In this document: piece by piece, positions 2,110 to 21,317 of the stretch | Layout: every line of letters begins with the position of its first letter | How positions within the stretch are numbered: the stretch's first letter is position 1 | IMG/VR virus record: IMGVR_UViG_643348545_000012 | Direction: 5' to 3' (one strand) | DNA from: a virus | Lineage: Duplodnaviria; Heunggongvirae; Uroviricota; Caudoviricetes | Length of the DNA stretch: 22,074 nucleotides | Notes under the pieces: generated by a model | The model's input: the letters and a program-made list of their open reading frames with translations, nothing else | The model's database searches: none | Told to the model about the DNA's origin: nothing | Position numbers and translations under genes: made by a program

Positions 2110-2119
2110 AGATATCCTT

Positions 2120-2836
2120 TTAATTAGGTTCAAAAATTTTAAATTCATTCCACGGCAATTTTTTCCAGTTACTGGATGGATCTTTCAACCATGCAGTGAC
2201 TTCCTTTAAATCACGGTTCGCAGTGGCGACGGGGGTATCGTATATCATTAACCATTTTTGTCGGGCGCGAACATAAGCACTGGCATAATCTTCCCATGAA
2301 GCGAAACAATCTTGTGCTCTTTGAGCATTCAGTAATAACACTATCCAGGCCTGGTTTTCATCGCACCAGCCTAAACCGGCGATGCAACGAGTTAAAAAAG
2401 CAGTGCGCATACAGTCAAACGCCAGCCCATCCAGAACCTGGCCTTGTGCTGCCAGTTGTTCGTAAAAATCATGTGGAGAATTACCAAGCCCTGTAGCCCA
2501 GCGCTGTAATATAACGCCAATTTGTTGACGGAAATCTTCGTTGCTTTGGTAAGTTTCTGTTCCTAGCTCTTGTTTAACCTGTAGTGCAAGTTGTTGACGC
2601 TTATCATCAGTCAACTTTAAATCTAACGTGAAGCCATTTACTGACAGTCCATTACGACGAGCAACTATATCACCAATTGCTAATGCCCACTTACGTCTCT
2701 TTGTTGCTCGTCTTTTGTCCTTGATTAGATCCTTTTCTTTTTCTTTAGCAATAAAAGCATCGATTTGTGGTTTGTTTTTTTTGTATCTATAGATAAAAAT
2801 AAATATTGCGACCAGGAGAACAATGATAAGACTCAT
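2120..2836 (-). CDS. DUF1266-like (YbeU/YbeR-like) protein with N-terminal transmembrane helix
   Basis: 238 aa ORF; N-terminus MSLIIVLLVAIFIFIY is hydrophobic; C-terminal half with W/D-rich pattern ending ...WKKLPWNEF resembles my recollection of the DUF1266 family; start codon overlaps the stop of the upstream gene by 1 nt (TAATG), suggesting translational coupling. Confidence 0.6.
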   Translation of the reverse strand: MSLIIVLLVAIFIFIYRYKKNKPQIDAFIAKEKEKDLIKDKRRATKRRKWALAIGDIVARRNGLSVNGFTLDLKLTDDKRQQLALQVKQELGTETYQSNEDFRQQIGVILQRWATGLGNSPHDFYEQLAAQGQVLDGLAFDCMRTAFLTRCIAGLGWCDENQAWIVLLLNAQRAQDCFASWEDYASAYVRARQKWLMIYDTPVATANRDLKEVTAWLKDPSSNWKKLPWNEFKIFEPN

Positions 2837-4050
2837 TATTTTTCAACCTCTGACAGGGGTAAGTAATGAGATGTCTGTAATGTCAAACTCTCTATCTCAA
2901 AGGAAATGTTGCTGATATTTTGACCTGCAAATTGCGGATGCCACTCAGCGCCAGGGAATAACATTTCCGCAGAAGTAGCAACTATAGGGTCAATAGCATT
3001 AAGATAATGTAACTTATCAGGTGCGCTGTGTAACAGTAACCACTGCAACTCCACTGAAGGATTTGTAAAATGTTCTAATAAATGAAAGTTATTATGTAGT
3101 ACGCTTAGTAAAAAACTGGTTTCGTATACTTCCGTTACATATTTCCACCCCTGATATTCAGGTGTATTTTCATAAACAATACCCATACCTTCACAATCAC
3201 TATGTCGAACTGCTTGTGGTGATAATAGTTGCAAAAGAGACAAAACATCGTCCGCATATTTTTTAACTGGATGACGATTTTGCTTACCTTTTATTTGATC
3301 AATTTCAAGTGAATCACCAACAACATTGAGAGCAATAGTAACATGAGGAATATTATTATTATCACGCAAACTGAATAACCGTAATTTATGTTGCTCAATT
3401 TGATTTGCATAATACTCACCATAACCACCGGTAAGATTTTTTCGATCATCAAACTGGCCTACGCAATGTTGCATATGCCATGATTCATAAGCCATTTCAC
3501 GACGAAGGTTCGAATGACTGGCATCAAACTCAACAATTTTTCCGTCTGGCACATCAAGTATTGACTTTACAGTATTTTGTTCACTCGGCTGCCACCCTTT
3601 CTCGCGTCGTTGAAGCATCTTTTCATGCTCTTCTTCACGCATTCTGAACGCAACGTAGCAGGTTATGCGCTGTAGTTTTGATTCCAGACGGGTACCACAT
3701 TTCCTGGAAAGAAATTCCACCAACTCCCGTTCTTTGGTTAATATTTGTTGATGATCGGTTTCGATATAATAAAGTGTCGCAGTTGATACTGAGGCAGTAT
3801 TAAACTTCGATACCAGCCATTCCGGGATTACATCATCATTTTTATTAAACAGTGAATATTCTGCAAGCGAGTTAATTTGTTGCACCATTGGAAAGTCACT
3901 AATTAGCCATCGATAAAAATGGTTGAGTAACCATTTTTGGATGGTCTCATTATCCTGGCGAAACAGACTTCTTTGCAAAATTGCTGTTTTTACTTCCGGG
4001 GCATTAATTACATCCCTTGCATTATAATTCTGGTGAATATTTCCAGTCAT
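2836..4050 (-). CDS. Hypothetical protein (404 aa), first gene of AT-rich three-gene operon
   Basis: Long ORF in track, AT-rich codon usage, divergent from yegQ; no family recognised by eye. Confidence 0.6.
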   Translation of the reverse strand: MTGNIHQNYNARDVINAPEVKTAILQRSLFRQDNETIQKWLLNHFYRWLISDFPMVQQINSLAEYSLFNKNDDVIPEWLVSKFNTASVSTATLYYIETDHQQILTKERELVEFLSRKCGTRLESKLQRITCYVAFRMREEEHEKMLQRREKGWQPSEQNTVKSILDVPDGKIVEFDASHSNLRREMAYESWHMQHCVGQFDDRKNLTGGYGEYYANQIEQHKLRLFSLRDNNNIPHVTIALNVVGDSLEIDQIKGKQNRHPVKKYADDVLSLLQLLSPQAVRHSDCEGMGIVYENTPEYQGWKYVTEVYETSFLLSVLHNNFHLLEHFTNPSVELQWLLLHSAPDKLHYLNAIDPIVATSAEMLFPGAEWHPQFAGQNISNISFEIESLTLQTSHYLPLSEVEK

Positions 4051-4537
4051 AACATCCGCCCGTGTTTATTATATCACTCAAAGCAATAATTGTTGACTAT
4101 AGATTTTTTATCTAAATCAGCATGGTTGCAGGTACATACTCAAGTAAGCCACTCAAGAAAATAACGTAAACTCAATAGTGGCAGCGTCACAAACTTTGGA
4201 AATTATGTCTTATATTTGCAGTTTATTTTAGTGAATAATTGAGATAAATGACATTATTTTACATCCTCAATAATTCAGGCTGTAAGAGGACGGCAAATAC
4301 ATTCATAATTATCAGGGGATGAACATTCAGGAAAGTAGTCAGTATCGTCAACTTTTTCTTTTATCACTACATGAAGATTTCGTGTAGATACTCCCATCTC
4401 TGCCACTTCTCCCCTCACATTTACACTGGAGCTAAACCCGCCGATTGCGCTACAATGCCCGCCCTTAAAGTGGGGGCACTCCCCTAACCGCTTCATCAGG
4501 TGAAGCGGCTCTGACCTGTCATCAGAACGAGAGAATT

Positions 4538-5899
4538 ATGTTTAAACCGGAACTCCTTTCCCCGGCGGGAACGCTGAAAAATATGCGTTACGCTTTCGCT
4601 TATGGCGCAGATGCTGTTTATGCGGGCCAGCCGCGTTACTCCCTGCGTGTACGCAACAACGAATTCAACCACGAAAATCTTCAGCTCGGCATCAATGAAG
4701 CCCACGCGCTGGGGAAAAAGTTTTATGTCGTGGTCAACATTGCACCGCACAACGCCAAGCTGAAAACCTTTATCCGTGACCTGAAACCGGTGGTGGAAAT
4801 GGGGCCGGATGCGCTGATTATGTCCGATCCAGGGCTGATTATGCTGGTGCGTGAGCACTTCCCGGAAATGCCAATCCACCTCTCGGTACAGGCTAACGCC
4901 GTAAACTGGGCGACGGTGAAATTCTGGCAGCAAATGGGTCTGACCCGCGTGATCCTCTCTCGCGAACTGTCACTGGAAGAGATTGAAGAGATCCGCAATC
5001 AGGTGCCGGATATGGAGATCGAAATCTTCGTTCACGGCGCGCTGTGCATGGCCTACTCCGGTCGCTGCCTGCTCTCTGGCTATATCAACAAGCGCGACCC
5101 GAACCAGGGCACCTGCACCAACGCCTGCCGCTGGGAGTATAACGTCCAGGAAGGGAAAGAAGATGACGTCGGCAACATCGTACACAAGTACGAGCCGATT
5201 CCGGTGCAAAATGTTGAGCCGACGCTGGGTATCGGCGCGCCAACCGACAAAGTGTTTATGATCGAAGAAGCCCAGCGTCCGGGCGAGTATATGACCGCGT
5301 TTGAAGATGAGCACGGCACTTACATCATGAACTCGAAAGATCTGCGCGCCATCGCCCATGTTGAACGCCTGACCAAAATGGGCGTGCATTCGCTGAAAAT
5401 CGAAGGCCGTACCAAATCTTTCTACTATTGCGCACGCACCGCGCAGGTTTACCGTAAAGCTATCGATGACGCCGCTGCGGGCAAACCGTTCGATACCAGC
5501 CTGCTGGAAACTCTGGAAGGTCTGGCGCATCGTGGCTATACCGAAGGTTTCCTGCGTCGTCATACCCACGACGATTATCAGAACTACGAATACGGTTATT
5601 CGGTTTCTGACCGTCAGCAGTTTGTTGGTGAGTTTACCGGTGAGCGCAAGGGGGAGCTCGCGGCGGTAGCGGTGAAAAATAAATTCTCCGTTGGCGACAG
5701 CCTTGAGCTGATGACGCCGCAAGGCAACATTAACTTTACCCTTGAGCATATGGAAAACGCCAAAGGTGAAGCGATGCCGGTCGCACCAGGCGATGGTTAT
5801 ACTGTGTGGCTCCCGGTGCCGCAGGATCTTGAGCTAAATTACGCGCTGCTGATGCGTAATTTCTCCGGGGAAACCACGCGTAACCCCCACGGTAAGTGA
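4538..5899 (+). CDS. yegQ: U32-family peptidase-like protein YegQ/TrhP (tRNA hydroxylation-associated)
   Basis: 453 aa ORF beginning MFKPELLSPAGTLKNMRYAFAYGADAVYAGQ with the EIFVHGALCMAYSGRC U32 signature; GAGAG RBS just upstream of the ATG; matches recalled E. coli YegQ in length and sequence. Confidence 0.93.
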   Translation: MFKPELLSPAGTLKNMRYAFAYGADAVYAGQPRYSLRVRNNEFNHENLQLGINEAHALGKKFYVVVNIAPHNAKLKTFIRDLKPVVEMGPDALIMSDPGLIMLVREHFPEMPIHLSVQANAVNWATVKFWQQMGLTRVILSRELSLEEIEEIRNQVPDMEIEIFVHGALCMAYSGRCLLSGYINKRDPNQGTCTNACRWEYNVQEGKEDDVGNIVHKYEPIPVQNVEPTLGIGAPTDKVFMIEEAQRPGEYMTAFEDEHGTYIMNSKDLRAIAHVERLTKMGVHSLKIEGRTKSFYYCARTAQVYRKAIDDAAAGKPFDTSLLETLEGLAHRGYTEGFLRRHTHDDYQNYEYGYSVSDRQQFVGEFTGERKGELAAVAVKNKFSVGDSLELMTPQGNINFTLEHMENAKGEAMPVAPGDGYTVWLPVPQDLELNYALLMRNFSGETTRNPHGK

Positions 5900-6470: not shown

Positions 6471-7634
6471 TTAATCATCATCTTCTGTTTCGTACTCCAC
6501 ATCAGAAAGCCTGACCTCAAGCTCTAAGGACGTCGTGAAGCCGCTATTATTCAGAAAATGTGTCACCTTAGTGATTGTCCAGTCCTGCTCGTCTATGACG
6601 CGCTTAAAGCCTGACACTCTGACCGGTGTTTCCGTGTAAATATCAGCACGACCAGTGGCAAGGCTGATGGAGAACTCCGCAACGCCCCGTTGCAGTTTAT
6701 CCCACTTCGCCTGAGCGGCGCGCATGGCCTGCGCTTTCGTGGCATATACCGTGGTCAGGGCAAAAACGTTGTCAGCTTCACCGGCCATGTATTCACCTTC
6801 GCGCGCTTCCGGTACTTTTGGCGCTTTCTTCTGCGTGACTGGTTTCGCTTTCGGGTGCTCCAGTGCGCGCAGGTGTTTCTCTTTCTTTTTGCGTTTCAGT
6901 TTTACCTTCTGCTTTTGCGGCTTCGGGTCTTTGGTGTGTAACCACTTTGCCGTTACGCCGGTATAGGCTCCACGGTCAGCAATCGCAAAATGATGGCGGT
7001 CGCCGTCGCTGCGGGTTATGGTGACCTGCGGGATTTTTTTACCGCTGGCCGTCACCCCCTGCCCCGCTTTGAGAAACAACAGTTTTCCCATTTTTACCGA
7101 CACCTCACCGCCGTTGCGTTCTGCAAGACGGGTCAGGAATTTCGCATCAGACTCCTGCGACTGGTCGATGTGCGGGATTTTAATTCCGGCCAGTGACGGC
7201 GCGACACTGGCTTCCAGCCTGTTACGGGAGGCTATCGCCTCAACAATCGCACCGAGCGTGGTGTCATGCCATGACCCTTCACGGCGGGAATTGAGCGTCC
7301 CGCGAAAATCTGCACTCCGGGCGCGGATGGTGACCACATCCGGTGCGCCCCGGTGTTCAACCTCATCAACGGTAAATTTCCCTTTGCATACCAGGGCAAA
7401 ACCTTTCCAGCCGATATACACCTTCAGAACAGCACCACGAACCGGCAGTTCGACCTGCCCGTCGGCATCGTTCAGTTCAATATCAAGCTGGTCAGCCTCA
7501 AAGCCCCGGTTATCCGTCAGGGTCATGCTCATCAGACGGTCGCTGATATTGCCGGTAATATCCCTGCTGTCGAGCATCAGCATGTAATCCGGCGTCAGCG
7601 TACTGCCTGCATCAAATGTCAGCGCATCCAGCAT
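6471..7634 (-). CDS. D: P2-like tail protein D (late control gene D product)
   Basis: 387 aa ORF, same length and gene order as P2 gpD (immediately upstream of ogr). Confidence 0.9.
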   Translation of the reverse strand: MLDALTFDAGSTLTPDYMLMLDSRDITGNISDRLMSMTLTDNRGFEADQLDIELNDADGQVELPVRGAVLKVYIGWKGFALVCKGKFTVDEVEHRGAPDVVTIRARSADFRGTLNSRREGSWHDTTLGAIVEAIASRNRLEASVAPSLAGIKIPHIDQSQESDAKFLTRLAERNGGEVSVKMGKLLFLKAGQGVTASGKKIPQVTITRSDGDRHHFAIADRGAYTGVTAKWLHTKDPKPQKQKVKLKRKKKEKHLRALEHPKAKPVTQKKAPKVPEAREGEYMAGEADNVFALTTVYATKAQAMRAAQAKWDKLQRGVAEFSISLATGRADIYTETPVRVSGFKRVIDEQDWTITKVTHFLNNSGFTTSLELEVRLSDVEYETEDDD

Positions 7635-8113
7635 TATCCCGCCCCCGTCATACCCGTGAATCTGGTCGCCACACTGCCAGCCTTACCGATGAGCGATTCC
7701 GCCTGTTTACCGATATCGCCATAAAGCGCGGCCAGTGATTCATCCACGCGGGTGAGCGACAGCGTAAAATCAATTTTCCGGGGTGTGCCGTCTGCAAAGA
7801 AAATACTCCCTGTTTCACTCACCCTGCTGATGACATACATGCCGTAAATCATGCCGGTGCCATCCAGCAACGGCCACGCCCGGCCTTCCTCTGCCATCAG
7901 CCTGAGCGTGGTCATCGTCAGCTTCCCGCCGGTCAGTTCGGGATAAAGCACGCCGGCAAGCGTCATGTTTTCCTCACCCACACCGAGAAACTGAAAGGCA
8001 TCCCGTTTACCGATACGGGAATTTGACGGCCAGCGATAATCTGATTCACGCTGCATGGTCTGGTGTGGCAGCGTCTGGCGCATAAAAACAAACATACCTA
8101 ACGCGAGCATCAT
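7634..8113 (-). CDS. U: P2-like tail protein U
   Basis: 159 aa ORF; position between T and D; stop overlaps the D start (coupled). Confidence 0.88.
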   Translation of the reverse strand: MMLALGMFVFMRQTLPHQTMQRESDYRWPSNSRIGKRDAFQFLGVGEENMTLAGVLYPELTGGKLTMTTLRLMAEEGRAWPLLDGTGMIYGMYVISRVSETGSIFFADGTPRKIDFTLSLTRVDESLAALYGDIGKQAESLIGKAGSVATRFTGMTGAG

Positions 8114-8127
8114 TTTTCGTCACCTCC

Positions 8128-10575
8128 TTAACCGTCATGCATCATGCTGGCACGGGCACGCGCACGTTTATCCCGCTCGTATTTTTCGAGCGCATCCTGT
8201 AACTGGCGGTCAAGCTGTGTCCCCGGCGCAGTACCACCCGTCAGGCTGATGTGATATTCGTTTTTACTCTGGTCCACATAAGAGCGGCCAGCCAGTGCCG
8301 TGACTGGCTGATAAGCCTGATAGCCTGCATAAGAGCTGGTCGCCGGAATATAACCACCGGTGCCATACGTGGCGGCATGAGTTCTGGCGGCGGTCTGGTC
8401 AAGTGTGTCTGACTCTTTGTTGATGACCCCGAGCTTTTCCAGTACCCAGGCAATACCGCTGCGCAGTTTGTTGAACGCATTAAGCGGCAGCATCAGCGCG
8501 TCAGCCAGTGCCTGCCCGAACATGACACCCGTGTCACGGCAACGGTTCAGGGTGTCCTGGGTGGCTTTGACCGGGGCAATCAGGTTTTTAAACCACTGCC
8601 ACGCGGCCTGTAACTTTTCGCCCAGCCAGTCAAACACCGGCTTAAGTGGCATGAACAGTTCCCCCACCGGCGCAAATGCCGCTTTCAGCCCTTCCACCAC
8701 ACCGCCAAAGAATGCGCTGACAGGCTCCCAGTATTTACGGATAAGCAACGCCCCGGCGACAATGGCGGCCACCACGGCCACAACCGGCCAGCTAATCGCC
8801 CCGATGGCCGTCATAACAGCACTGCCAACCGTCGTGAAGATTGCCCCCATTGCGCCTGCTGCCGCGATAATGGCATTGATGCCGGTGATAACCGGCCAGG
8901 CTACAAGACCAATGGCACCGATGATGCCAGTCAGCGCCAGTGCGCCACCGGCAATGAGGCCGGTGGTTGACGCCAGTGATTTGTTTTTCTGGATCCAGCC
9001 GTCGAGTTTTAGCACATACTTTGTGGCTGTCTGCGTGAGATTACGCAGTGCGCCTTCCTGCTGGTCAAACAGGTCAGTCCCCACCGCCTCATAAGCGGAC
9101 TGAAACTCCTTAAAGTCACCGCCGAGGTTGTCCTGCATGATATTTACCAGCTCGGCGGTCTTCCCGTCTGAGGCTTTAAACGCAGCGGTCAGTTTGTCCA
9201 GCTTTCCGGTTGAGGCGGCAGTCATCAGCACGGCGGCGGCTGAGCTGGCCTCTTCCCCGAAAATAGTTTTCATGTATTCAGCCTGCTGGGCAGTACCGAG
9301 CCGGTTTTTCTCAAAACTGGCCTGCATTTCTTTCAGAATGGTAAATACTGGTCGGGTGTTTCCCTTGCTGTCTGAGGTTTTCACACCAAGCTCTTTCAGT
9401 GCATCCCACGCTTTTCCCGTCGGTGCCTGCAGGCGGCTTAACACGGCACGGCTTCCCGTCCCCGCCATTGAGCCTGTGATTTTTGCATCATGCAGCGCCC
9501 CGACCATTGCGGCGGTTTCTTCAATGCTGACACCGGCATTTTTTGCCACAGGTGCGGCATAGGTCAGCGCATCGCTCATGCCGTCAAAATCGGCGGCGGT
9601 TTTGTTCATCGTCATGGAGAGAACATCCCCGATATGAGCGACCTTATCGTTTGAAAGCTGAAAGGCGGATTTCATCCCCATCAGCAGGGCGGCGTTTTCT
9701 TCCATCGTGCGACGGTTCGCCAGCGCCATATTCAGCGTGACCGGCGTTGCCGCCTGAATGGCATCAACATCCCCACCGGCTTTTGCAATGATAATCTGCG
9801 CACCGGCTGCATCATCCGCCGAGGCGGCGGTGTTGTCGCCGAGCTGGCGCGCCTGTTTGCGGAGCGCGGCCATTTCGGCGGAGTCTTTTGCCACGCCGAG
9901 CACAGCCTGTAATTCTGAGTTTTTCTGCGCAAACTCATAACCGGGCATCAGCAGCTTAACTCCGGCCATCGTTCCCGCCGCCGCAATCCCCACACCGGCA
10001 GCGCCCACTGAGGCCATATTTCCGGCCAGTTCCTTTCCGGCCTGATAACGCTGTTTGACTGCGTTAAGTTTTGCCTGTTGCGCGCTGACACGCGCCAGCG
10101 CGTCACGCTGCCGGTTAAGCTGCGCGGTGGTTTCACTGATACGGTTTTTCAGCCCCTGCTCATCATGTGCAAGATTGCGGGTATTAATTCCCACAGCAGC
10201 CAGTTCCCGCTGCTGGCGTTTAACGGAATCCGTCAGGCGGTTATATTTCGCCTGTAAGTCCTCCGCCGCTCGCTTTGCGGATTCCAGCACTTTCGCCTGA
10301 GCACGGGTCGGACGTTCGGTATTTTTAAACTGTGTGGCAAGGGCTTCGGCTTCCAGCCGTGCCTTCTCAAGTGCATGACCAGTCACGGCGAGCTGTGCGC
10401 TGGTCTTGCGAAATCCCTCAATACGGGATGCGTGACCGTTCAGCTCGCGCAGTGATTTTTGTGTGTCCCGGATATCCCCCGACAGCGACTTGCTCGCTGT
10501 ACGGATGGATTTAAACGGGCGGGATGCCTGGTCAACAGCCCTGAGCAATACCTGTAATTTTACATTGTTACTCAT
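8128..10575 (-). CDS. T: Tail tape-measure protein (P2 gpT-like)
   Basis: 815 aa ORF with coiled-coil-rich N-terminus and Gly/Ala-rich hydrophobic central segment, typical of tape-measure proteins; lies directly downstream of E/E'. Confidence 0.92.
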   Translation of the reverse strand: MSNNVKLQVLLRAVDQASRPFKSIRTASKSLSGDIRDTQKSLRELNGHASRIEGFRKTSAQLAVTGHALEKARLEAEALATQFKNTERPTRAQAKVLESAKRAAEDLQAKYNRLTDSVKRQQRELAAVGINTRNLAHDEQGLKNRISETTAQLNRQRDALARVSAQQAKLNAVKQRYQAGKELAGNMASVGAAGVGIAAAGTMAGVKLLMPGYEFAQKNSELQAVLGVAKDSAEMAALRKQARQLGDNTAASADDAAGAQIIIAKAGGDVDAIQAATPVTLNMALANRRTMEENAALLMGMKSAFQLSNDKVAHIGDVLSMTMNKTAADFDGMSDALTYAAPVAKNAGVSIEETAAMVGALHDAKITGSMAGTGSRAVLSRLQAPTGKAWDALKELGVKTSDSKGNTRPVFTILKEMQASFEKNRLGTAQQAEYMKTIFGEEASSAAAVLMTAASTGKLDKLTAAFKASDGKTAELVNIMQDNLGGDFKEFQSAYEAVGTDLFDQQEGALRNLTQTATKYVLKLDGWIQKNKSLASTTGLIAGGALALTGIIGAIGLVAWPVITGINAIIAAAGAMGAIFTTVGSAVMTAIGAISWPVVAVVAAIVAGALLIRKYWEPVSAFFGGVVEGLKAAFAPVGELFMPLKPVFDWLGEKLQAAWQWFKNLIAPVKATQDTLNRCRDTGVMFGQALADALMLPLNAFNKLRSGIAWVLEKLGVINKESDTLDQTAARTHAATYGTGGYIPATSSYAGYQAYQPVTALAGRSYVDQSKNEYHISLTGGTAPGTQLDRQLQDALEKYERDKRARARASMMHDG

Positions 10576-11582: not shown

Positions 11583-12773
11583 TTAATTGCTGTTAACCGA
11601 GGTGACCAGATTTGCCAGGTATTTATCGGTAATACGCTGGCGCAGGGTCAGGTTTTCGAGAGGAGGCACCGGGGTATAGTCGTAGTCGATATACAGTTTT
11701 CCGGCCTTGAGGGTTTCCGCATCGTTGGATTCTTCGCTGAACCAGCAGGTCGCATCCACGATATAGCCGTTTGTTTTCAGCTCTCGGAATTTGGCATTGA
11801 TGCCGTCAACGATGTCGCGAATCAGCGTTGCGGTGATGGGCTTGTCCACCGCCCACATGTGCGCCTCAGCCATCGTGTCGGCCAGCACCTGCGCGGTGCG
11901 GGTGTAGTTTTCAAAGAGGAACAGCGGGTCATCAGAGCAGGTACGGTTACCCCAGAAGCGGAAACCGTCACGGCGAATCAGCGTTGTGACGCCTGACTCG
12001 TTAAGCAGGTCAGCATCGGTGCCGGACTCCTGCAAATCCCAGAATACGGACGCGCTGATGCCGGTAACACCGTTTACCCCGACGTTGGACAGCGTTTTAT
12101 GCCAGCCCTGCTCCTGGTCGATTTTAGCGCGCAGACCCAGCGCACGGGCGGTGGCATACGCGGTGGCGGTGGTACTGGTGACCGTATCCCATGCGAGGAA
12201 ATCCGGCCAGATGACCATCAGCTCACGCTGGCTGAAATTCTGGCGGTAGGCTTTCACCTCGGAAATGGTCTTACAGCCCCATGCGCTGATATATCCGAAA
12301 GCGCGCAGCTTCTGACAGACGGATGCCAGTGCAACAGCCACCTCTTTGGTATCCAGTCCCGGCACACCGAGAATACGCGGTTTAACACCGGTTACCGACT
12401 CCGCCGCCAGCAGGGCTTTTAGTCCGGTGTACTGACCGTTTTCGTCGGTGGTGCCGATGATATTGGAAACGGTCTGCGCGAGTTTCGTTTCCTCGTCATC
12501 ACCGGTGCCGTCTTCCACGCGCACGACAACGGTGACCGGTTTTGACTGGTCAGCGATGGCCTGCAACGATGCCGCCAGCGTGCCTTTTTTACCGGCCTTT
12601 GCAATTGCGCTTTGCACATTGGTAATCAGCACCGGTTTATTGAGGGGGAAGGTTTCCGCATCCGCATCGCTGGCCGTGCAGACCATGCCGACAATGGCAG
12701 TGGATACGGTGGAAATGACGCGGGTGCCGTCGTTAATCTCCAGCACCTGCACGCCATGATGATAGTCACTCAT
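11583..12773 (-). CDS. FI: Tail sheath protein (P2 gpFI-like)
   Basis: 396 aa ORF beginning MSDYHHGVQVLEINDG, same length and position as P2 gpFI. Confidence 0.92.
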   Translation of the reverse strand: MSDYHHGVQVLEINDGTRVISTVSTAIVGMVCTASDADAETFPLNKPVLITNVQSAIAKAGKKGTLAASLQAIADQSKPVTVVVRVEDGTGDDEETKLAQTVSNIIGTTDENGQYTGLKALLAAESVTGVKPRILGVPGLDTKEVAVALASVCQKLRAFGYISAWGCKTISEVKAYRQNFSQRELMVIWPDFLAWDTVTSTTATAYATARALGLRAKIDQEQGWHKTLSNVGVNGVTGISASVFWDLQESGTDADLLNESGVTTLIRRDGFRFWGNRTCSDDPLFLFENYTRTAQVLADTMAEAHMWAVDKPITATLIRDIVDGINAKFRELKTNGYIVDATCWFSEESNDAETLKAGKLYIDYDYTPVPPLENLTLRQRITDKYLANLVTSVNSN

Positions 12774-12869
12774 CCGTTTAACTCCGTGGTTAATGGGTGC
12801 AACTATTTTCTGTTGGGCAGTGCATGAGACGCTATTTGACCTGACTGGTCAGTGGATGAAACAACAGAT

Positions 12870-12898
12870 AAAGAAAAGGCGGGCAATTCGCCCGCCTG
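12870..12898 (-). terminator. Rho-independent terminator (hairpin GGCGGGC-aattc-GCCCGCC followed on the minus strand by TTTTCTTTAT), separating the cargo module from the FI late operon
   Basis: Perfect GC-rich 7-bp stem at 12880-12898 with T-rich tract on the minus strand. Confidence 0.55.
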
Positions 12899-12952
12899 TC
12901 CTGATTTGTACTCACTCATTTTCCGCCTGACAATTTACATAGCCCAAATGCT

Positions 12953-12975
12953 ATCAAATCTGACAGTCTGCTTTG
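12953..12975. repeat. Site A: atcaaatctgacagtctgctttg, copy 1 of a ~22-bp putative recombination site
   Basis: Shares the exact 11-mer ctgacagtctg plus flanks with sites at 15262-15284 (direct, 21/23) and 15384-15405 (inverted). Confidence 0.6.
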
Positions 12976-13103
12976 AGCGAAAAGTGGACATTAGAGTTAC
13001 AAAAGCAAGTTTAAATCATCCAAAATATTACAATGTCCTTATCTATCTGATATCGTTATAATAAAAAGCTCCTGAATATAATCGATAGTAGGTGGTTATT
13101 TCC

Positions 13104-13481
13104 ATGAAATCAATTTTAGAGGTTTTTACTCAAGGAAATACTAAAGAAAAACTGGCTGTTATCGCCGATCTCACAACCATTGCGGGAATATCGATTGCAA
13201 CTATTATTGCTGGTTTGTTAACCCTAGTTGCAAAAACAGATAAACTAGATGTTGGAAATCTGTTTGGAGTTGTCATAATATCTCTGCTCGGATTGGCTGG
13301 TGTTTGCTGTTTTGTGGCCTTATTTATTTGGGTTATAACCCAAATGTCTAAACCATGGGGAACACCTCGGGGGGTTCAGCCCTTAGTTAAGTGTGCTATT
13401 TCCCTTATCTTTATCTGTATGTTTTTGCTGGCTGTCTTTACATTTTATGAGTTTATTTCTTCGATGAGCATACGCTATTGA
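13104..13481 (+). CDS. Small integral membrane protein (about 125 aa, 3 predicted TM helices), cargo gene
   Basis: ORF in track (13092..13481, likely ATG at 13104 with aggtgg RBS); three long hydrophobic stretches; AT-rich. Confidence 0.55.
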   Translation: MKSILEVFTQGNTKEKLAVIADLTTIAGISIATIIAGLLTLVAKTDKLDVGNLFGVVIISLLGLAGVCCFVALFIWVITQMSKPWGTPRGVQPLVKCAISLIFICMFLLAVFTFYEFISSMSIRY

Positions 13482-13503
13482 ATATAAAATCAGCCCCCAT
13501 AAC

Positions 13504-14088
13504 TTAAAAGAGACCTTCTATATCGACTTCAATGCCCAAATAACGGACTGTGCTTTCCAGTTTCTTATGGCCCAACAGAAGTTGGATCACCCGGAGACTC
13601 TTGGTTTTCTTGTAGATTAAGTAAGGTTTTGTTCTTCTCATGGAATGTGTGCTGTACAGCGAATCTTCGAGACCAAGCTTTTCTACCCACCCATGAAAAA
13701 TTCGGTTGTATTGCCGGGTTGATATATGGTGGTTAGTTCCGACCCGAGAGCGGAACAGGAAGCCTTTACTATGCCAGTTGCCGAGCTTTATCAATGCAGT
13801 AACCGCTTCCCTTGTCCCTTTGGTTATCTCAAATTGGACAGGGCTGCCGGTTTTCTGTTGCAACACCGTTGCTCTGCTTGAGACAGAACTGCCATATGCA
13901 GCATCTGATACTTTGAGTTTGACCAAATCACAGCCCCGTAGCTTAGTGTCCAAAGCCATGTTGAACAGAGCTAGATCGCGTGTTTTACCTTCCAACTCAA
14001 GTCTAATCCGGATCCCCCAGATATGAGATATCTGAAGTGGCCTTTTTTGACCGATGGTACGGTCTTTATTCCACGGTGACGTTTTCAT
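13504..14088 (-). CDS. Short tyrosine recombinase (FimB/FimE-sized, about 194 aa)
   Basis: C-terminus HSMRRT...LLGHKKLESTVRYLGIEVD carries the box II H-x-x-R, second His and nucleophile Tyr; earlier TKLRGCDL supplies a candidate box I Arg. The track ORF starts at 14190, but the ATG at 14088 has an AGGAG RBS 8 nt upstream and gives a protein the size of FimB/FimE. Confidence 0.75.
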   Translation of the reverse strand: MKTSPWNKDRTIGQKRPLQISHIWGIRIRLELEGKTRDLALFNMALDTKLRGCDLVKLKVSDAAYGSSVSSRATVLQQKTGSPVQFEITKGTREAVTALIKLGNWHSKGFLFRSRVGTNHHISTRQYNRIFHGWVEKLGLEDSLYSTHSMRRTKPYLIYKKTKSLRVIQLLLGHKKLESTVRYLGIEVDIEGLF

Positions 14089-14194
14089 ATTCAAATCTCC
14101 TGCAATGTGGGAGATTTGAGTATGGTTGTCTCTCAAGAGCGAAAATAAGTCAACTATCACTAGTTGTTGCGCATGTACGTATTCTGTCAATTAA

Positions 14195-15037
14195 TTATTG
14201 ACAATCATCAATTCTGGAATGATCAAAATCATCATATCGAATTATAGTCTGGTTGACTGTATCTATTGTTGGTGTCATTTCTGTTATAATATCCTGATAA
14301 CCTAAAGAGTTAAATACATTTACTAAGGCCTCACACCGAAGGGCCGTAGCAATTACAAAATTATAAATTGCCAGCCGTTTATTTTCTTGTTTAACTGCAA
14401 GAATGAATTCGATAGCAGTATTTTCATCACTTTGGATTGCATTATATAGAGATACTATATTTACCATATCATCAGAGAATGTATGTATTGAATCACAAAG
14501 GGGAACGTAATGGGCATGATAGTGTGTTTCCCAGCCAATTAATTCAAAAAGTTTTCTGGTTCCTGGATATTCAGGTGTATTTGGCCACAATCTATTAAAT
14601 AGATCAGTTAGTTCTTTTCCCATGCGAATCCTTTCATTTGCTGCTGGATTAGTCATTCCTTTGGATTTTAAACACTCCAGCCACCGTTTTCCATTACTAT
14701 GAACTAATTTCTTACTAGCCTTGAGTAATGCTTGTGCATTTTCGCCATCATCTATTGCTATATAAAATTGATTGGCAGCCTGTTCTATTATAACCCTAGC
14801 TAATACTTCCGATGCTGAAAAGGCTCCTATATTCAAAGAAGAGATAGCCTGATTACTAAGTTCATTCAGTACATTAAAGTACTGTAAGACCATCAATTTT
14901 TGTTCCACACCCTTTAGGTTGTCTATTTTATTTTTATGCTCCTCAAATTTTGCATGGATATATTTATTTATCGCGGCTATTTTTTTTACATCTTCGTCAA
15001 GATCAAACGGGCAACGTCCAAACAATTCTTTTTTCAT
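14195..15037 (-). CDS. Hypothetical cytoplasmic protein (280 aa), cargo gene upstream of the recombinase
   Basis: ORF with AGGAG RBS 7 nt upstream of ATG; AT-rich; no recognisable motif (no RT YxDD, no clear nuclease or HEPN motif). Confidence 0.6.
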   Translation of the reverse strand: MKKELFGRCPFDLDEDVKKIAAINKYIHAKFEEHKNKIDNLKGVEQKLMVLQYFNVLNELSNQAISSLNIGAFSASEVLARVIIEQAANQFYIAIDDGENAQALLKASKKLVHSNGKRWLECLKSKGMTNPAANERIRMGKELTDLFNRLWPNTPEYPGTRKLFELIGWETHYHAHYVPLCDSIHTFSDDMVNIVSLYNAIQSDENTAIEFILAVKQENKRLAIYNFVIATALRCEALVNVFNSLGYQDIITEMTPTIDTVNQTIIRYDDFDHSRIDDCQ

Positions 15038-15075
15038 ATATTTCTCCTGTTGTACAAGCTTCCATAAGTTGGCAG

Positions 15076-15110
15076 ATTATACACTGAAGATTACCTATAA
15101 ATAGCTGTGC
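15076..15110 (-). promoter_or_regulatory. Candidate sigma70 promoter for the 280-aa cargo gene (perfect TATAAT on the minus strand at 15081-15076; weak -35)
   Basis: Reverse complement of attata at 15076-15081, about 38 nt upstream of the ATG at 15037; -35 element poor, so speculative. Confidence 0.3.
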
Positions 15111-15261
15111 GGGATAGCAGATCAGTGCAAGAAGTACAACCAAGTGAATGTGCGTATTCAGATACCTGGCCTAACGTTCGCGATAGCCGTCCCCTGCACG
15201 AAGCCATATATTAGATGTATTAGCTCAGACCTTATCTGACAGGTTGAGTAGGTAGAATCTA

Positions 15262-15284
15262 ATCAAAGCTGACAGTCTGGTTTG
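15262..15284. repeat. Site B: atcaaagctgacagtctggtttg, direct copy of site A
   Basis: 21 of 23 positions identical to site A; read directly. Confidence 0.6.
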
Positions 15285-15383
15285 GACTGTGAGTTCAACC
15301 GATGGATGCAACACACAGCGATCTACGGACATTACTAGCATAGCTGTGTATTAATCATCGGGAAGCAGGTCAGTCCGCTCCTA

Positions 15384-15405
15384 GCACAGAGCAGACTGTC
15401 AGATT
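15384..15405. repeat. Site C: inverted copy of the site (reverse complement aatctgacagtctgctctgtgc); also part of a 10-bp-stem hairpin tagcacagag...ctctgtgcta (15382-15423)
   Basis: Reverse complement matches site A at 20 of 22 positions; lies 47 bp downstream of the G stop codon. Confidence 0.6.
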
Positions 15406-15457
15406 AGGCTTTACTCTGTGCTATAGATACGTTAGCTCACTCCAGAGATCATACAAC

Positions 15458-15985
15458 TTATTGCGGCATTTCCGGCCATTCAGGATTTGCAGGATCCACA
15501 CGGCTGACCAGAACACTGTAGCGTTCCCATGCTTCCAGTCGGCTACGCTCCTCATCTGTTGCCATATTCAGTCTGACAGAGCGTTCCAGTGGCTGAATGA
15601 TAGTTTCAGCTTCGGAAAGCAAAGCTGACTTCTGTAATTCCGCCAGTTGCAGCTGTTCGTCTGCCGTATAAATCCGCTTAATCACGGCACCATCCTTAAA
15701 CATCCATTTACCTGAGTCATCAGCACGTCGGTTGGCGGTAATATCAGGAACCTCGACAACGCTAAAACCTTCAGGGTTGAGCGTTGAAGCATCTCTGGTG
15801 ATGCCGACAATTATATTATTCTCATCGTAAACAATCTTTATCGTGTCTTCCTGAAAATTACTTACTTCCTCATACCAGTTTTTTCCCTCTTCGGACCATA
15901 ACCAGATAACATCAAAATTTTTTGTCAGTTGATATTGGGCAACAGTTTTTGGATTACCCGCAGTAATATTTTTTAAATGCTGCAT
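15458..15985 (-). CDS. G: Tail fiber assembly chaperone (P2 gpG-like)
   Basis: 175 aa ORF immediately downstream of the tail fiber gene; same length as P2 gpG; Tfa-like sequence. Confidence 0.88.
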
Positions 15986-15988
15986 AAA

Positions 15989-18094
15989 TTACACCTGTGC
16001 GACGTTATACCATGTGCCATTGATGTATTTTTGTATTGGTCTGAATACTGCGGGGTCATCACCATCGACTTCACCGACAATACCAAGCCCGGTAATTACG
16101 TGCCCTGCTTTCTCATACATCACCCCTTTCTGCATGGTCTGGACAACACGTGTGCCAAGTCTGACATCTCTCACATAGCGGGAATCAAAGTTACCGTAAT
16201 CCGAGGGATTAACACGCCCCGTAATATTTATGGTTTTATTACTTTGAACGCTTCCGGAGACAAAGCGCATAACATGGACGCTATTAGCATAAACATCCAG
16301 ATTACCATCACCATTTTGTTTAAAGCCCGTGTCATTATCACCCAAAACAATCGAATTACCGCCAAGAGCACTGGATGTTCCTATACCCAGAGCACCATTC
16401 AATTGACCACCAGATAATGATAACGCCCCAACATCAGCAGCAGTCGGTTTAATGTACGAACTGTAAATTACATATACAGTTCCATCTGTCAGGCCTGTTG
16501 GTTTATTCGCTGTATAAGTTGGTGATGTATGAATCGTTACGCTGGCGTTACTGGTATAATCCCACTGAATATTAACACCTGTGGCGTAATTACCTATTTC
16601 AACATAAACATCATAGGTATCACCGGATGTATTCACCCATGCAAAATTAGTAAATCCAACCGATGTCCGTCGCCATAACGCACCAGTAAGACCTTTTGGA
16701 TTTCCATTTCCCGCACGAAGAACAAGTTCAGATATACCAGCCTGCATAGGGGAGTTAACATTATATCCGGCACCACCAATCAGGCTTATGTAAACCACGG
16801 AACTGGCCTGGGGCATGGTTACAGTTGCCAGCCTGAACCATCCTGTACCACCACTAAAAGACATGGTTGTTGAATTTGTTGCTCCAATATTGCGCAGGAA
16901 TAATCTTTTATCAGGAATATCCGCACCGTTCTGATCTTTCTGAAGACGTTTTTCAGCATTGTCATAGGCAGACTTCACCGCTTTTGGTGTTGCGGCCAGT
17001 GTTTCAGAATCACTGTTGGTGGCGCTACTGAGCTGAACAAGCCCTTTTCGCGCTGTGGTGGCATCCTGTGCAGTGTATTTCCCGTTAGCAAGGTCATACG
17101 CGACCTTTACCGCCTTTGGCGTTGCCGCAAGCGTTTCAGAATCACTGTTGGTGGCGCTACTGAGCTGGACAAGGCCTTTTCTCGCTGTGGTGGCGTCCTG
17201 TGCAGTGTATTTCCCGTTAGCAAGGTCATACGCGACCTTTACCGCCTTTGGCGTTGCGGCCAGCGTTTCAGAATCGCTGTTGGTGGCGCTACTGAGCTGA
17301 ACAAGACCTTTTCGCGCTGTGGTGGCGTCCTGTGCAGTGTATTTCCCGTTAGCAAGGTCATACGCGGCCTTTACCGCTTTTGGTGTTGCGGCGAGCGTTT
17401 CAGACGTGCTGTTGGTGGCACTACTGAGTTGGACAAGACCTTTTCGCGCTGTGGTGGCATCCTGCGCAGTATATTTCCCGTTAGCAAGGTCATACGCGGC
17501 CTTTACCGCTTTCGGCGTTGCAGCCAGTGTTTCAGACGCGCTGTTGGTTGCACTGCTTAACTGAGTAAAACCTTTTGCGGTCAGCGAGGCGTCCGGGTGA
17601 CGTCGTGACTGTTCATGCTCTGCAATTTTGTCATCAACGTAATCCTGCGTTGCCATCACCGTTGTGGTGTCAATGGTCAGCTCCACTGAGGCCACACTGC
17701 TGACGATGATGACCATGCGGCAGGTCTGCGAACGCCCTGAGCCTTCGGCAAGAGCGGGTTTATAACTTTCAGCCATGTTCGCCACGGCAATTAGCGTTCC
17801 CGCATCATCGTACAGGCCAAGCTCACGCATCCAGAAACCGCCCACCTCCGGCGGAATAACCAGCTCTGCGATAATATAATTACTGTTTCGTTTGTCCAGG
17901 GTGATTTTGTTCAGCGCATGTCGCCAGACTTCATGGATAAGCCCGGTCTGTCCGGCATCCGGGACAGGCAATTTACCACCGCCATCCCCGACGGCCATCG
18001 TGGTAATGTTGACCTTCCGCCCTCCCGGTGCGGTTGCCGCTGCCAGCTTTGCTGCACCGGCAGTGGTGATAACGGTTTTGAATTTTGTGCTCAT
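15989..18094 (-). CDS. H: Tail fiber protein (P2 gpH-like) with internal 44-aa tandem repeats
   Basis: 701 aa ORF; N-terminus MSTKFKTVITTAGAAKLAAATAPGG resembles the conserved fiber N-terminal baseplate-attachment region; C-terminal half divergent. Confidence 0.92.
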   Translation of the reverse strand: MSTKFKTVITTAGAAKLAAATAPGGRKVNITTMAVGDGGGKLPVPDAGQTGLIHEVWRHALNKITLDKRNSNYIIAELVIPPEVGGFWMRELGLYDDAGTLIAVANMAESYKPALAEGSGRSQTCRMVIIVSSVASVELTIDTTTVMATQDYVDDKIAEHEQSRRHPDASLTAKGFTQLSSATNSASETLAATPKAVKAAYDLANGKYTAQDATTARKGLVQLSSATNSTSETLAATPKAVKAAYDLANGKYTAQDATTARKGLVQLSSATNSDSETLAATPKAVKVAYDLANGKYTAQDATTARKGLVQLSSATNSDSETLAATPKAVKVAYDLANGKYTAQDATTARKGLVQLSSATNSDSETLAATPKAVKSAYDNAEKRLQKDQNGADIPDKRLFLRNIGATNSTTMSFSGGTGWFRLATVTMPQASSVVYISLIGGAGYNVNSPMQAGISELVLRAGNGNPKGLTGALWRRTSVGFTNFAWVNTSGDTYDVYVEIGNYATGVNIQWDYTSNASVTIHTSPTYTANKPTGLTDGTVYVIYSSYIKPTAADVGALSLSGGQLNGALGIGTSSALGGNSIVLGDNDTGFKQNGDGNLDVYANSVHVMRFVSGSVQSNKTINITGRVNPSDYGNFDSRYVRDVRLGTRVVQTMQKGVMYEKAGHVITGLGIVGEVDGDDPAVFRPIQKYINGTWYNVAQV
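16961..17572. repeat. Tandem repeat, 132-bp unit, about 4.6 copies, encoding the 44-aa motif SETLAATPKAVKxAYDLANGKYTAQDATTARKGLVQLSSATNSx inside the tail fiber gene
   Basis: Near-identical DNA units begin at about 16978, 17110, 17242, 17374, 17506; also visible as duplicated antisense ORFs 17055-17300 and 17319-17564 in the track. Confidence 0.9.
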
Positions 18095-20603: not shown

Positions 20604-21317
20604 ATGGTCAGCTATAATGTGACTAATGTGTGGGGGCTAATCGTTTTTTTCCTTTGTAGCTTTGCAGTATTAGCATTTTTTAGCTTTGGTAAAAGTAACC
20701 TTATGAGGCTTATTGCACATTATTTCAATTTTGGATATTCAGACAAAAAATTAAAAAGACTTGACCGCGAGTGGCGCGACATTCAACTATTTAAAATAAT
20801 TAATGGAATCAATGTATCAGGCATTGAAAATGTGAGAATGATACAGCAGGGACTGATTGATGGAAAACTAAAAACATCGTATTTTTCCCTTACTCGCATC
20901 TGGGGTGACATAACAAAACCACCACACATAATTAAAACAATAATTGTAATTCTGGCCAGTATTTTTTACATTCTCCTCGCATGTTACATACACAACGAAC
21001 AATCCGTTATAGTAAGGGATGCCATAGGCATACCATATAAAAACATGATGTACTATGTTTATAGTGACAAAGTTCTTTTATCCTTCAAAAATAAAGCAGT
21101 TGAATTTAATAAAACTTATAGCCTTGCCGATTGCAAGAGACTGCAAAACGTATTTATAAAAGACACACTTCCTGAGATCGCCTGCAATAAGCTCTTACAG
21201 CTAAACGAGGAGGACTCCGAATGGTTAAGCCAGGAGATTAAAGATAATAACAGTCACAAAAAAGCATTATTAATACTATCCCTGAAGCCGAGAGTGTCCA
21301 CACAGTGTCCACAGTAG
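20604..21317 (+). CDS. Hypothetical AT-rich membrane protein (237 aa, two hydrophobic segments), divergent from V; prophage cargo
   Basis: ORF with AGGAG RBS 6 nt upstream of ATG; very AT-rich relative to adjacent tail genes; TM-like segments VWGLIVFFLCSFAVLAFFSF and IIKTIIVILASIFYILLACYI. Confidence 0.55.
   Translation: MVSYNVTNVWGLIVFFLCSFAVLAFFSFGKSNLMRLIAHYFNFGYSDKKLKRLDREWRDIQLFKIINGINVSGIENVRMIQQGLIDGKLKTSYFSLTRIWGDITKPPHIIKTIIVILASIFYILLACYIHNEQSVIVRDAIGIPYKNMMYYVYSDKVLLSFKNKAVEFNKTYSLADCKRLQNVFIKDTLPEIACNKLLQLNEEDSEWLSQEIKDNNSHKKALLILSLKPRVSTQCPQ

Follow-up and report, generated by a model that had tools for sequence, protein, structure and literature searches.

How does foreign cargo come to enter and leave a slot that lies inside the tail operon of a P2-like prophage? 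The hotspot literature that we examined leaves this unexplained. The question is raised by a 22,074-nucleotide stretch of Caudoviricetes DNA (IMG/VR record IMGVR_UViG_643348545_000012; hereafter the window), the minus strand of which carries the late region of such a prophage in the order V, W, J, I, H, G, cargo interval, FI, FII, E/E′, T, U and D. Between G (15458–15985) and FI (11583–12773) lie three genes, encoding a membrane protein of 125 amino acids (aa; 13104–13481, plus strand), a short tyrosine recombinase of 194 aa (13504–14088, minus strand) and a 280-aa protein of the DUF5677 family (14195–15037, minus strand). On balance we think it probable, from comparison of sequences, that this interval is an array of separately exchangeable cassettes, assembled in the Z/fun slot of P2 by conservative site-specific recombination at two non-identical core sites, A and B. 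Read along the plus strand, the array would consist of a B+ site, cassette 1 with the membrane protein, the recombinase in a junction position, a second B+ site, cassette 2 with the DUF5677 protein and an A− site. Each cargo unit would comprise one independent gene that brings its own ribosome-binding site, and would be framed as B+, cargo, A−; crossovers inside, or at the border of, the 8-nucleotide (nt) spacers of the core sites would allow cargo to be exchanged among P2-like prophages, lambdoid prophages and chromosomal islands.

Comparison of junctions defined a 24-nt core site in which the arms GTCCGCTn and nAGCGGAC enclose an 8-nt spacer of one of two types, A (TGTGCCAG) or B (TGAGCGAA). 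The slot is flanked by inverted repeats of 33 nt that are 82% complementary. The left repeat (12957–12989, plus strand) holds a B+ core at 12966–12989 (GTCTGCTT TGAGCGAA AAGTGGAC) and the right repeat (15373–15405, minus strand) an A− core at 15373–15396 (GTCCGCTC CTAGCACA GAGCAGAC); a degenerate B+ core marks the boundary between the recombinase and DUF5677 genes (14128–14151, plus strand; GTCTCTCA AGAGCGAA AATAAGTC). B+ on the sheath side and A− on the G side are common to P2, P2-EC58, P2-EC67 and a further P2 prophage (locus L006), and the Z/fun gene of P2 is framed by B+ and A− just as the cargo of the window is. Classified sites numbered 89 in 248 kb of enterobacterial recombinase loci, compared with 1.35 in shuffles, and the rest of the window, outside the slot, contained none. 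A perfect 12-8-12 site was present in E. coli Nissle (locus L004, 8104–8143), and near-perfect A and B sites were found in 84 and at least 120 IMG/VR contigs, respectively. Seven of the IMG/VR loci (L113, L115, L117, L124, L132, L140 and L154) had near-perfect B+ and A− sites at the same spacing of 1466 nt, so that one cassette appears to be widespread.

Breakpoints in homology coincided with the spacers. On both sides of the slot, identity to P2-like phages covered the phage-side arm and continued across the spacer, ending at the cassette-side arm; this is the pattern that crossovers inside the spacer, or at its edge, would be expected to leave. In the left repeat, the phage-side arm was conserved and the cassette-side arm variable. 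Homology among E. coli recombinase loci broke at about 14142, within the B spacer of the 14128–14151 site. Junctions between cassettes were 66 nt long and consisted of A−, 18 nt and B+ in 20 cases (L006, L007 and 18 others). Site-specific recombination linking P2-like phages and enterobacterial genomes was already proposed in the title of a 2004 article by Nilsson, Karlsson and Haggard-Ljungquist (Mol Biol Evol 21:1). The slot repeats are those annotated as inverted repeats in the Z-region records AJ512683 and AJ512685; the repeats marked there are long (91 and 113 nt), and core sites, spacer types and a recombinase are not annotated.

The recombinase is the candidate enzyme, and its gene has a B site on one side and an A site on the other. 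At 10–11 of 12 enterobacterial loci, the flanking DNA of which was otherwise unrelated, a B site was located 63 nt before the start of the gene and an A site 22 nt past its end; the gene therefore takes up the junction position, replacing the 18-nt linker. An exact GTCCGCT was found within 200 nt upstream of the recombinase gene at 16 of 78 loci, compared with 29 of 1305 control windows, and the 16 include Pseudomonas and Betaproteobacteria, in which the spacers differ. This upstream heptamer, an associative line of evidence, is the main indication that the recombinase may recognize the arms. We propose that the 200-aa form usual in this family acts on A and B sites, mostly in trans, and that it is probably the vehicle by which such cargo moves between prophages. 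A 16-kb stretch of Buttiauxella (L017) carried two 200-aa copies, at 8001–8603 and 11856–12458, each preceded by a B− site about 62–63 nt upstream.

The recombinase consists of a catalytic domain only. It matched PF00589 (1.5e-17), with only about 35 residues in front of the catalytic domain; against phrog_216 the match spans profile positions 70–225 of 301, and the N-terminal core-binding domain present in Cre, XerC/D and lambda Int was not found. Inspection of motifs in the sequence located all candidate catalytic residues (R51, K79, H148, R151, H174 and Y183). By curated cut-offs the protein is not a FimB/E, Xer or integron integrase: the integron-integrase models NF011946 and TIGR02249 scored 17.9 and 17.8 bits (cut-offs 435 and 265), and the invertase models PRK09871 and PRK09870 scored 22.3 and 13.8 bits (cut-offs 222 and 221). 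No solved structure matched its sequence at E ≤ 0.001. The family is very large and remarkably well conserved, comprising nearly 8000 clusters at E ≤ 1e-10, with identities of 60–99% over 80 genome loci (mostly Gamma- and Betaproteobacteria) and of 72–96% among the protein clusters listed.

The copy in the window has lost its natural end. It is 93% identical to the 200-aa form across residues 1–189, and similarity stops at residue 189, that is, at 13522, where homology to the membrane-protein cassette starts; the last five residues and the stop codon derive from this junction. Because both homologies meet at 13522, a deletion appears to have joined a truncated cassette 1 to the recombinase, providing the latter with a foreign five-residue tail. 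The A site normally found downstream of the recombinase gene is deleted in the window and, as both that site and the recombinase tail are gone, the array here is probably immobile, or frozen. A Leclercia recombinase (L025, 8001–8567) also lost similarity to the family after residue 189, with different DNA downstream.

Translation of the recombinase may be held down by its own leader. A 15-9-15 palindrome (14086–14124, minus strand) contains the GGAG Shine–Dalgarno sequence and the ATG of the gene, and among homologous loci the sequence of its arms was free, with complementarity retained (covariation): stem positions beyond the GGAG showed several Watson–Crick pair types each and about 65–85% pairing, a fraction inflated by our choice of the register that maximized pairs. 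The Shine–Dalgarno sequence was paired in the minimum-energy leader fold at 61 of 75 homologous loci. RNAalifold found no structure in a MAFFT alignment of the leaders, because loop lengths differ. Since the arms vary freely yet remain complementary, and always enclose the Shine–Dalgarno sequence and start codon, we read the palindrome as an RNA hairpin of the messenger RNA leader that would block recombinase translation, not as a DNA site; its candidacy as a recombination site was ruled out by these same features. Fold-back inhibition of translation was reportedly described for the IS10 transposase by Davis, Simons and Kleckner in 1985, and the likeness is that pairing of the Shine–Dalgarno sequence and start codon would leave read-through transcripts untranslated; by comparison, the hairpin here is known from covariation and predicted folding alone. 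In the Leclercia locus (L025, 7946–8003), the loop of the leader hairpin was inverted (TGCAATGTG instead of CACATTGCA).

The three genes of the interval are found apart elsewhere. The membrane-protein cassette (12990–13522, plus strand; truncated distally) is 96% identical to a copy in the P2 prophage at L006, which lies alone between B+ and A− sites, with neither recombinase nor DUF5677 gene, beside a DUF6650 gene. In Pectobacterium, Serratia and Yersinia the cassette again had different neighbours, and the Serratia gene was directly downstream of a B+ site. A lambdoid prophage (L002) carried DUF5677 and recombinase genes, beside an AAA ATPase and an HNH endonuclease, but no gene for the membrane protein. 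Relatives of the DUF5677 protein (40–53% identity) in lambdoid hotspots had no recombinase nearby, and DUF5677 as an obligate partner of the recombinase is thereby ruled out. The recombinase block alone (13522–14142, 88–91% identity) occurred in 876 of 5426 complete E. coli genomes and the whole 2.4-kb composite in 36. Elsewhere in E. coli the recombinase block had as neighbours, at different loci, hypothetical proteins of a lambdoid prophage beside hokD/rem, an ETEC_3214-family protein and a dynamin-like cluster (in Nissle), a dynamin family protein, and a CBS-domain protein.

The slot and its contents had been described in a first-pass annotation, the observations of which held up but for one detail and the interpretation of which held up in part. 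ORF calling returned the open reading frames (ORFs) that it had listed for the small protein, the recombinase and the 280-aa protein, and the RefSeq annotation of an identical copy calls the same three. Its placement of the interval at the P2 Z/fun position agrees with Pfam matches of the flanking ORFs to Caudo_TAP (tail fibre assembly protein; 6.7e-34) and Phage_sheath_1 (tail sheath; 9.8e-34) and with the same layout in P2, where the G–FI interval is likewise occupied, by a 900-nt gene at the Z/fun position. The lower GC content of the cargo was also borne out (0.387 for the 2.4-kb block at 12990–15372, compared with 0.565 for FI–T and 0.578 for I–V), as were ribosome-binding sites belonging to the cargo genes themselves (GGTGG ahead of 13104 and GGAG 7 nt ahead of the 15037 start). 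The cargo block is 100% identical in E. coli PCN033, in which the chromosomal flanks differ. That the cargo is AT-rich, foreign DNA in the P2 Z/fun hotspot is supported, and the literature concurs with the earlier statement that this slot among the tail genes of P2-like phages is a defence hotspot (PMC13586616; bioRxiv 10.1101/2024.10.15.618418). Two of the earlier proposals fell. The terminator thought to be dedicated to the cargo is a terminator-like hairpin at 12877–12897 (minus strand; 9-bp stem with seven GC pairs, and a T-run), which lies outside the cargo at the end of the H–G operon, before FI; because the DNA around it is 93–95% identical to P2, Wphi and L-413C, it is a feature of the P2 backbone. 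The three genes had also been taken for one module, a reading that we reject because they occur separately elsewhere. An Rfam scan of 12600–15600 (E ≤ 1) gave no match, and no tRNA was found by a tRNA scan.

The gene of cassette 1 encodes 125 aa, or 129 aa from an alternative GTG at 13092. Kyte–Doolittle analysis gave three hydrophobic segments (residues 16–45, 47–83 and 90–123), in agreement with the three transmembrane segments previously assigned. The protein belongs to phrog_4155, a small family of 21 clusters, the named members of which are all from Enterobacterales; it had no Pfam domain and no conserved partner gene among the loci compared. As a small protein of inner-membrane type that is the sole gene of its cassette and lacks a conserved partner, it would most likely block entry or exclude other phages, and we picture it as an entry or exclusion factor or a membrane effector. 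Protection by this protein against some phage seems to us possible, though rather unlikely.

The cargo of the second cassette had been said to contain no recognizable motif. Pfam assigns it to DUF5677 (PF18928; 40.1 bits, gathering threshold 27.1); the protein also matched phrog_4167, of unknown function, and had no match in PADLOC or NCBIfam. An exhaustive profile search of 1.84 billion representatives returned just 80 relatives at E ≤ 0.001. In an alignment of 67 sequences, for which Pfam found PF18928 only and no second family or clan, R81 was invariant and E85, N89, W119, P158, F164, Y173, H185, D190 and N193 were nearly so. The AlphaFold2 model was confident and all-helical, with ten helices (pLDDT 95.3, pTM 0.92). 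DUF5677 weakly resembles HEPN domains. The HEPN motif R-x(4-6)-H was not found in the 280-aa protein, the conserved set being R81-x3-E85-x3-N89, with H185, D190 and N193 about 100 residues apart from it. The protein is thus pictured as a soluble helical bundle bearing a conserved R81/E85/N89/H185/D190/N193 set, and its protecting against some phage is, in our estimate, slightly less doubtful than for the membrane protein, without reaching an even chance. Genes that neighbour distant DUF5677 members in lambdoid hotspots encode a DNA methylase and AAA_15/AAA_21, SMC-like and Cap4-nuclease-like proteins.

Two further features lie within cassette 2. At 15236–15293 (plus strand) there is a relic copy (71% identity) of a left flank of the P2 type, including a B-like half-site; the relic is also present in the lambdoid copy. 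At 15328–15372 (plus strand) lies a 45-nt element, ATTACTAGCA...GCAGGTCAG, similar copies of which stand at cassette edges in L002, L003 and L005. There, elements of about 45 nt (ATTACTARCA...GCAGGTCAG) were found by core sites at approximately 5706–5750, 7614–7656 and 4468–4513, respectively, in either orientation relative to the cargo gene.

Several observations weigh against the recombinase as the enzyme of these sites and against parts of the assembly that we propose. The A and B spacers were not found in distant recombinase homologues. Only 3 of 158 viral loci with near-perfect sites had the recombinase within the fetched flanks, so that arrays are mostly recombinase-less and the recombinase, if it is the enzyme, would have to act mostly in trans. 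The junction at 13522 has no core site and looks like an ordinary deletion, and the end of the lambdoid copy adjoins merely a degenerate A-like site. As the link between recombinase and sites is associative, another enzyme may use them. On one such account, which we think improbable, the A and B sites are used by a different host or phage recombinase and the 200-aa gene is a passenger or a decayed integrase fragment; the scarcity of the gene on viral contigs, the missing core-binding domain and the want of a solved structure matching its sequence all suit this account, but one B and one A site keep fixed distances from the gene in unrelated contexts, the arm heptamer accompanies it across phyla, and its conserved identity, number of clusters and candidate catalytic residues make it unlike a decaying fragment. 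The A and B sites are not known to resemble dif or cer. Could the recombinase instead be a FimB/FimE-like invertase that phase-varies neighbouring cargo? Its size of about 200 aa and its catalytic-domain-only architecture are like those of FimB/FimE, and inverted repeats do flank the slot; we nevertheless give this very little credence, as the invertase models scored 22 and 14 bits, far below their cut-offs, an alternatively oriented copy did not turn up at any of the loci compared, and the flanking repeats differ in spacer (B versus A), so that inversion should be blocked, given the homology requirement of tyrosine recombinases. Equally hard to credit is a single anti-phage system in which the DUF5677 protein is sensor or effector, the recombinase acts on DNA and the membrane protein is an effector. 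The genes are indeed adjacent in the 36 E. coli genomes, and those for DUF5677 and the recombinase share a strand, are separated by 106 nt and occur jointly in the lambdoid prophage; their occurrence one without another, however, largely refutes it, and it is further opposed by a recombination site between each gene pair (that of the recombinase, its A site, being deleted in this copy), by more than 800 other E. coli contexts of the recombinase block and by the lack of a PADLOC match. The reading that we retain is the array of exchangeable cassettes, with the recombinase as candidate enzyme.

What the cargo does is a separate matter, on which the content of sister arrays bears. Among 100 ORFs lying between sites at 22 loci, PADLOC identified SIR2-HerA (three loci), PD-T7-1, PD-T7-5 and mad8, and Pfam identified DUF4238, Peptidase_U49 (Lit family), NUDIX and GNAT. 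The cassette platform is therefore rich in defence genes and not exclusive to them, as MFS transporters, ArsB, CopB and LysR-type regulators are carried as well. We propose that both cargo proteins of the window are lysogenic-conversion functions, most likely anti-phage; because the slot is a defence hotspot, the sister arrays carry such cargo and distant DUF5677 genes have the neighbours described above, this is a plausible guess, made by location only. For protection against some phage by one of the genes or by both, we would call the odds about even. The results that tell against an anti-phage role are these non-defence genes in sister arrays, the absence of any significant Foldseek match for the 280-aa model in the PDB or among viral models, the zero PADLOC families at E ≤ 0.1 for all three proteins (PADLOC-DB v2; the first-pass annotation had rightly found the composition unlike any named defence system) and a study in E. 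faecalis in which a distant DUF5677 ORF from a lactic acid bacterium, challenged with six phages, was not among five protective ORFs (PMC12632615). These results, with the GNAT, NUDIX and metal-resistance genes of sister arrays and a tblastn search in which neither cargo protein matched any of 50,697 sequenced phage genomes, would fit cargo that is not anti-phage, namely host-fitness, counter-defence or addiction morons, or neutral hitchhikers. We take that to be a possibility on the unlikely side, since the slot is a documented defence hotspot (PMC13586616), several validated systems are among the sister cassettes, and DUF5677 relatives in lambdoid hotspots lie beside methylase, AAA_15, Cap4-nuclease-like and SMC-like genes. 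Neither cargo protein resembles a housekeeping or structural protein.

Compared with known systems, the array shares its G–FI slot with P2 Z/fun, which, like old, tin and the P2/P4 hotspots (Rousset et al. 2022, PMC9122126; PMC13586616), is AT-rich, non-essential lysogenic-conversion cargo that varies between otherwise near-identical phages; it differs in that its cargo proteins are unrelated to Z/fun or any catalogued system and in that the slot here holds two cargo units and a recombinase gene. In the P2/P4 hotspot and defence-island literature that we examined there was no mention of the recombinase or of A/B sites, and literature searches turned up no relevant account of a small tyrosine recombinase or a cassette system of this kind. 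RADS small serine recombinases, the genes of which likewise stand beside variable defence cargo, belong to a different superfamily from the tyrosine recombinase here; that work flagged DUF5677 as enriched beside serine recombinases and found tyrosine recombinase baits to be unreliable defence markers across phyla (PMC12632615, PMC13552941). Cre/lox, Flp/FRT with heterospecific sites, and the XerCD pdif modules of Acinetobacter plasmids all have inverted arms around an 8-nt spacer. As in Cre/lox and Flp/FRT cassette exchange, two spacer types per unit would permit exchange without excision and, as with pdif, modules are bounded by sites in alternating orientation; the system here is a natural one, and its candidate enzyme has no counterpart of the N-terminal domain found in Cre and XerCD.

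The array also has likenesses to integrons. Both have arrays of small cassettes, junctions of about 66 nt with two simple sites each, inverted arms around 7–8-nt spacers, many arrays without a recombinase (like CALINs) and defence-rich cargo; chromosomal integrons are known to stock defence cassettes (bioRxiv 10.1101/2024.07.02.601686). By contrast, the recombinase here has 200 aa and its gene is inside the junction element, not beside an attI, and the GTTRRRY/RYYYAAC integron consensus is absent from the A/B junctions. Cargo genes here point both ways, and so do not rely on a single common promoter. Folding of six junctions as single-stranded DNA gave z-scores from −0.03 to −4.1, inconsistent between junctions. 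A wider reading, which we advance tentatively and consider doubtful, is that these arrays belong to an undescribed integron-like platform, in which a 200-aa recombinase gene inside an attC-like junction, together with heterospecific lox-like sites, would shuttle single-gene or small defence cassettes across Proteobacteria, among P2-like and lambdoid prophages, plasmids and chromosomal islands.

Other variable regions were seen around the slot. Beyond the baseplate gene V, on the opposite strand, an AT-rich ORF of 237 aa (20604–21317, plus strand; GC about 0.35) had no Pfam match, and a hypothetical gene is at the equivalent place in E. coli PCN033, between a virion morphogenesis gene and V. 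The late region thus seems to have a second cargo slot here, at which no A or B sites were found. In PCN033, the hotspot at the old/tin position between P2 gpA and the portal gene (L101, 1678–4726) contains a DNA cytosine methyltransferase and a BbrUII/HgiDII-family restriction enzyme. The tail fibre gene H (15989–18094) includes four to five tandem units of 44 aa (KGLVQLSSATNS.SETLAATPKAVK.AYDLANGKYTAQDATTAR) at approximately 16900–17560; its homologue in PCN033 is annotated as frameshifted, and the unit copies may represent repeat-number variation in the fibre. Outside the prophage, positions 1–4400 (GC 0.33–0.42, minus strand) encode a PcfJ-like protein of 404 aa, a DUF1266 protein of 238 aa and a DUF4034 protein that extends beyond the end of the window and has at least 715 aa, adjoining a peptidase U32 gene (4538–5899).

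Prophage hotspots are a main reservoir of bacterial immunity genes, and in the literature searched we found no prior description of a recombination grammar for this slot or of a candidate enzyme. A defined pair of core sites together with such a candidate makes the question of how cargo moves a testable one, and the arrangement of B+, cargo and A− is a sequence signature by which cassettes, many of unknown function, can be harvested from genomes. If active, the recombinase would be a very small natural cassette-exchange enzyme; if the cargo is anti-phage, the two proteins would represent two new single-gene defence or exclusion families, one having a fold without a significant solved relative. 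Were the integron-like platform real, it would provide an enzyme for the site-specific recombination that was suggested in 2004 to act at the Z region, and it could account for the integrase-only defence islands of E. coli, the mobility of which has been called unclear (PMC10121019).

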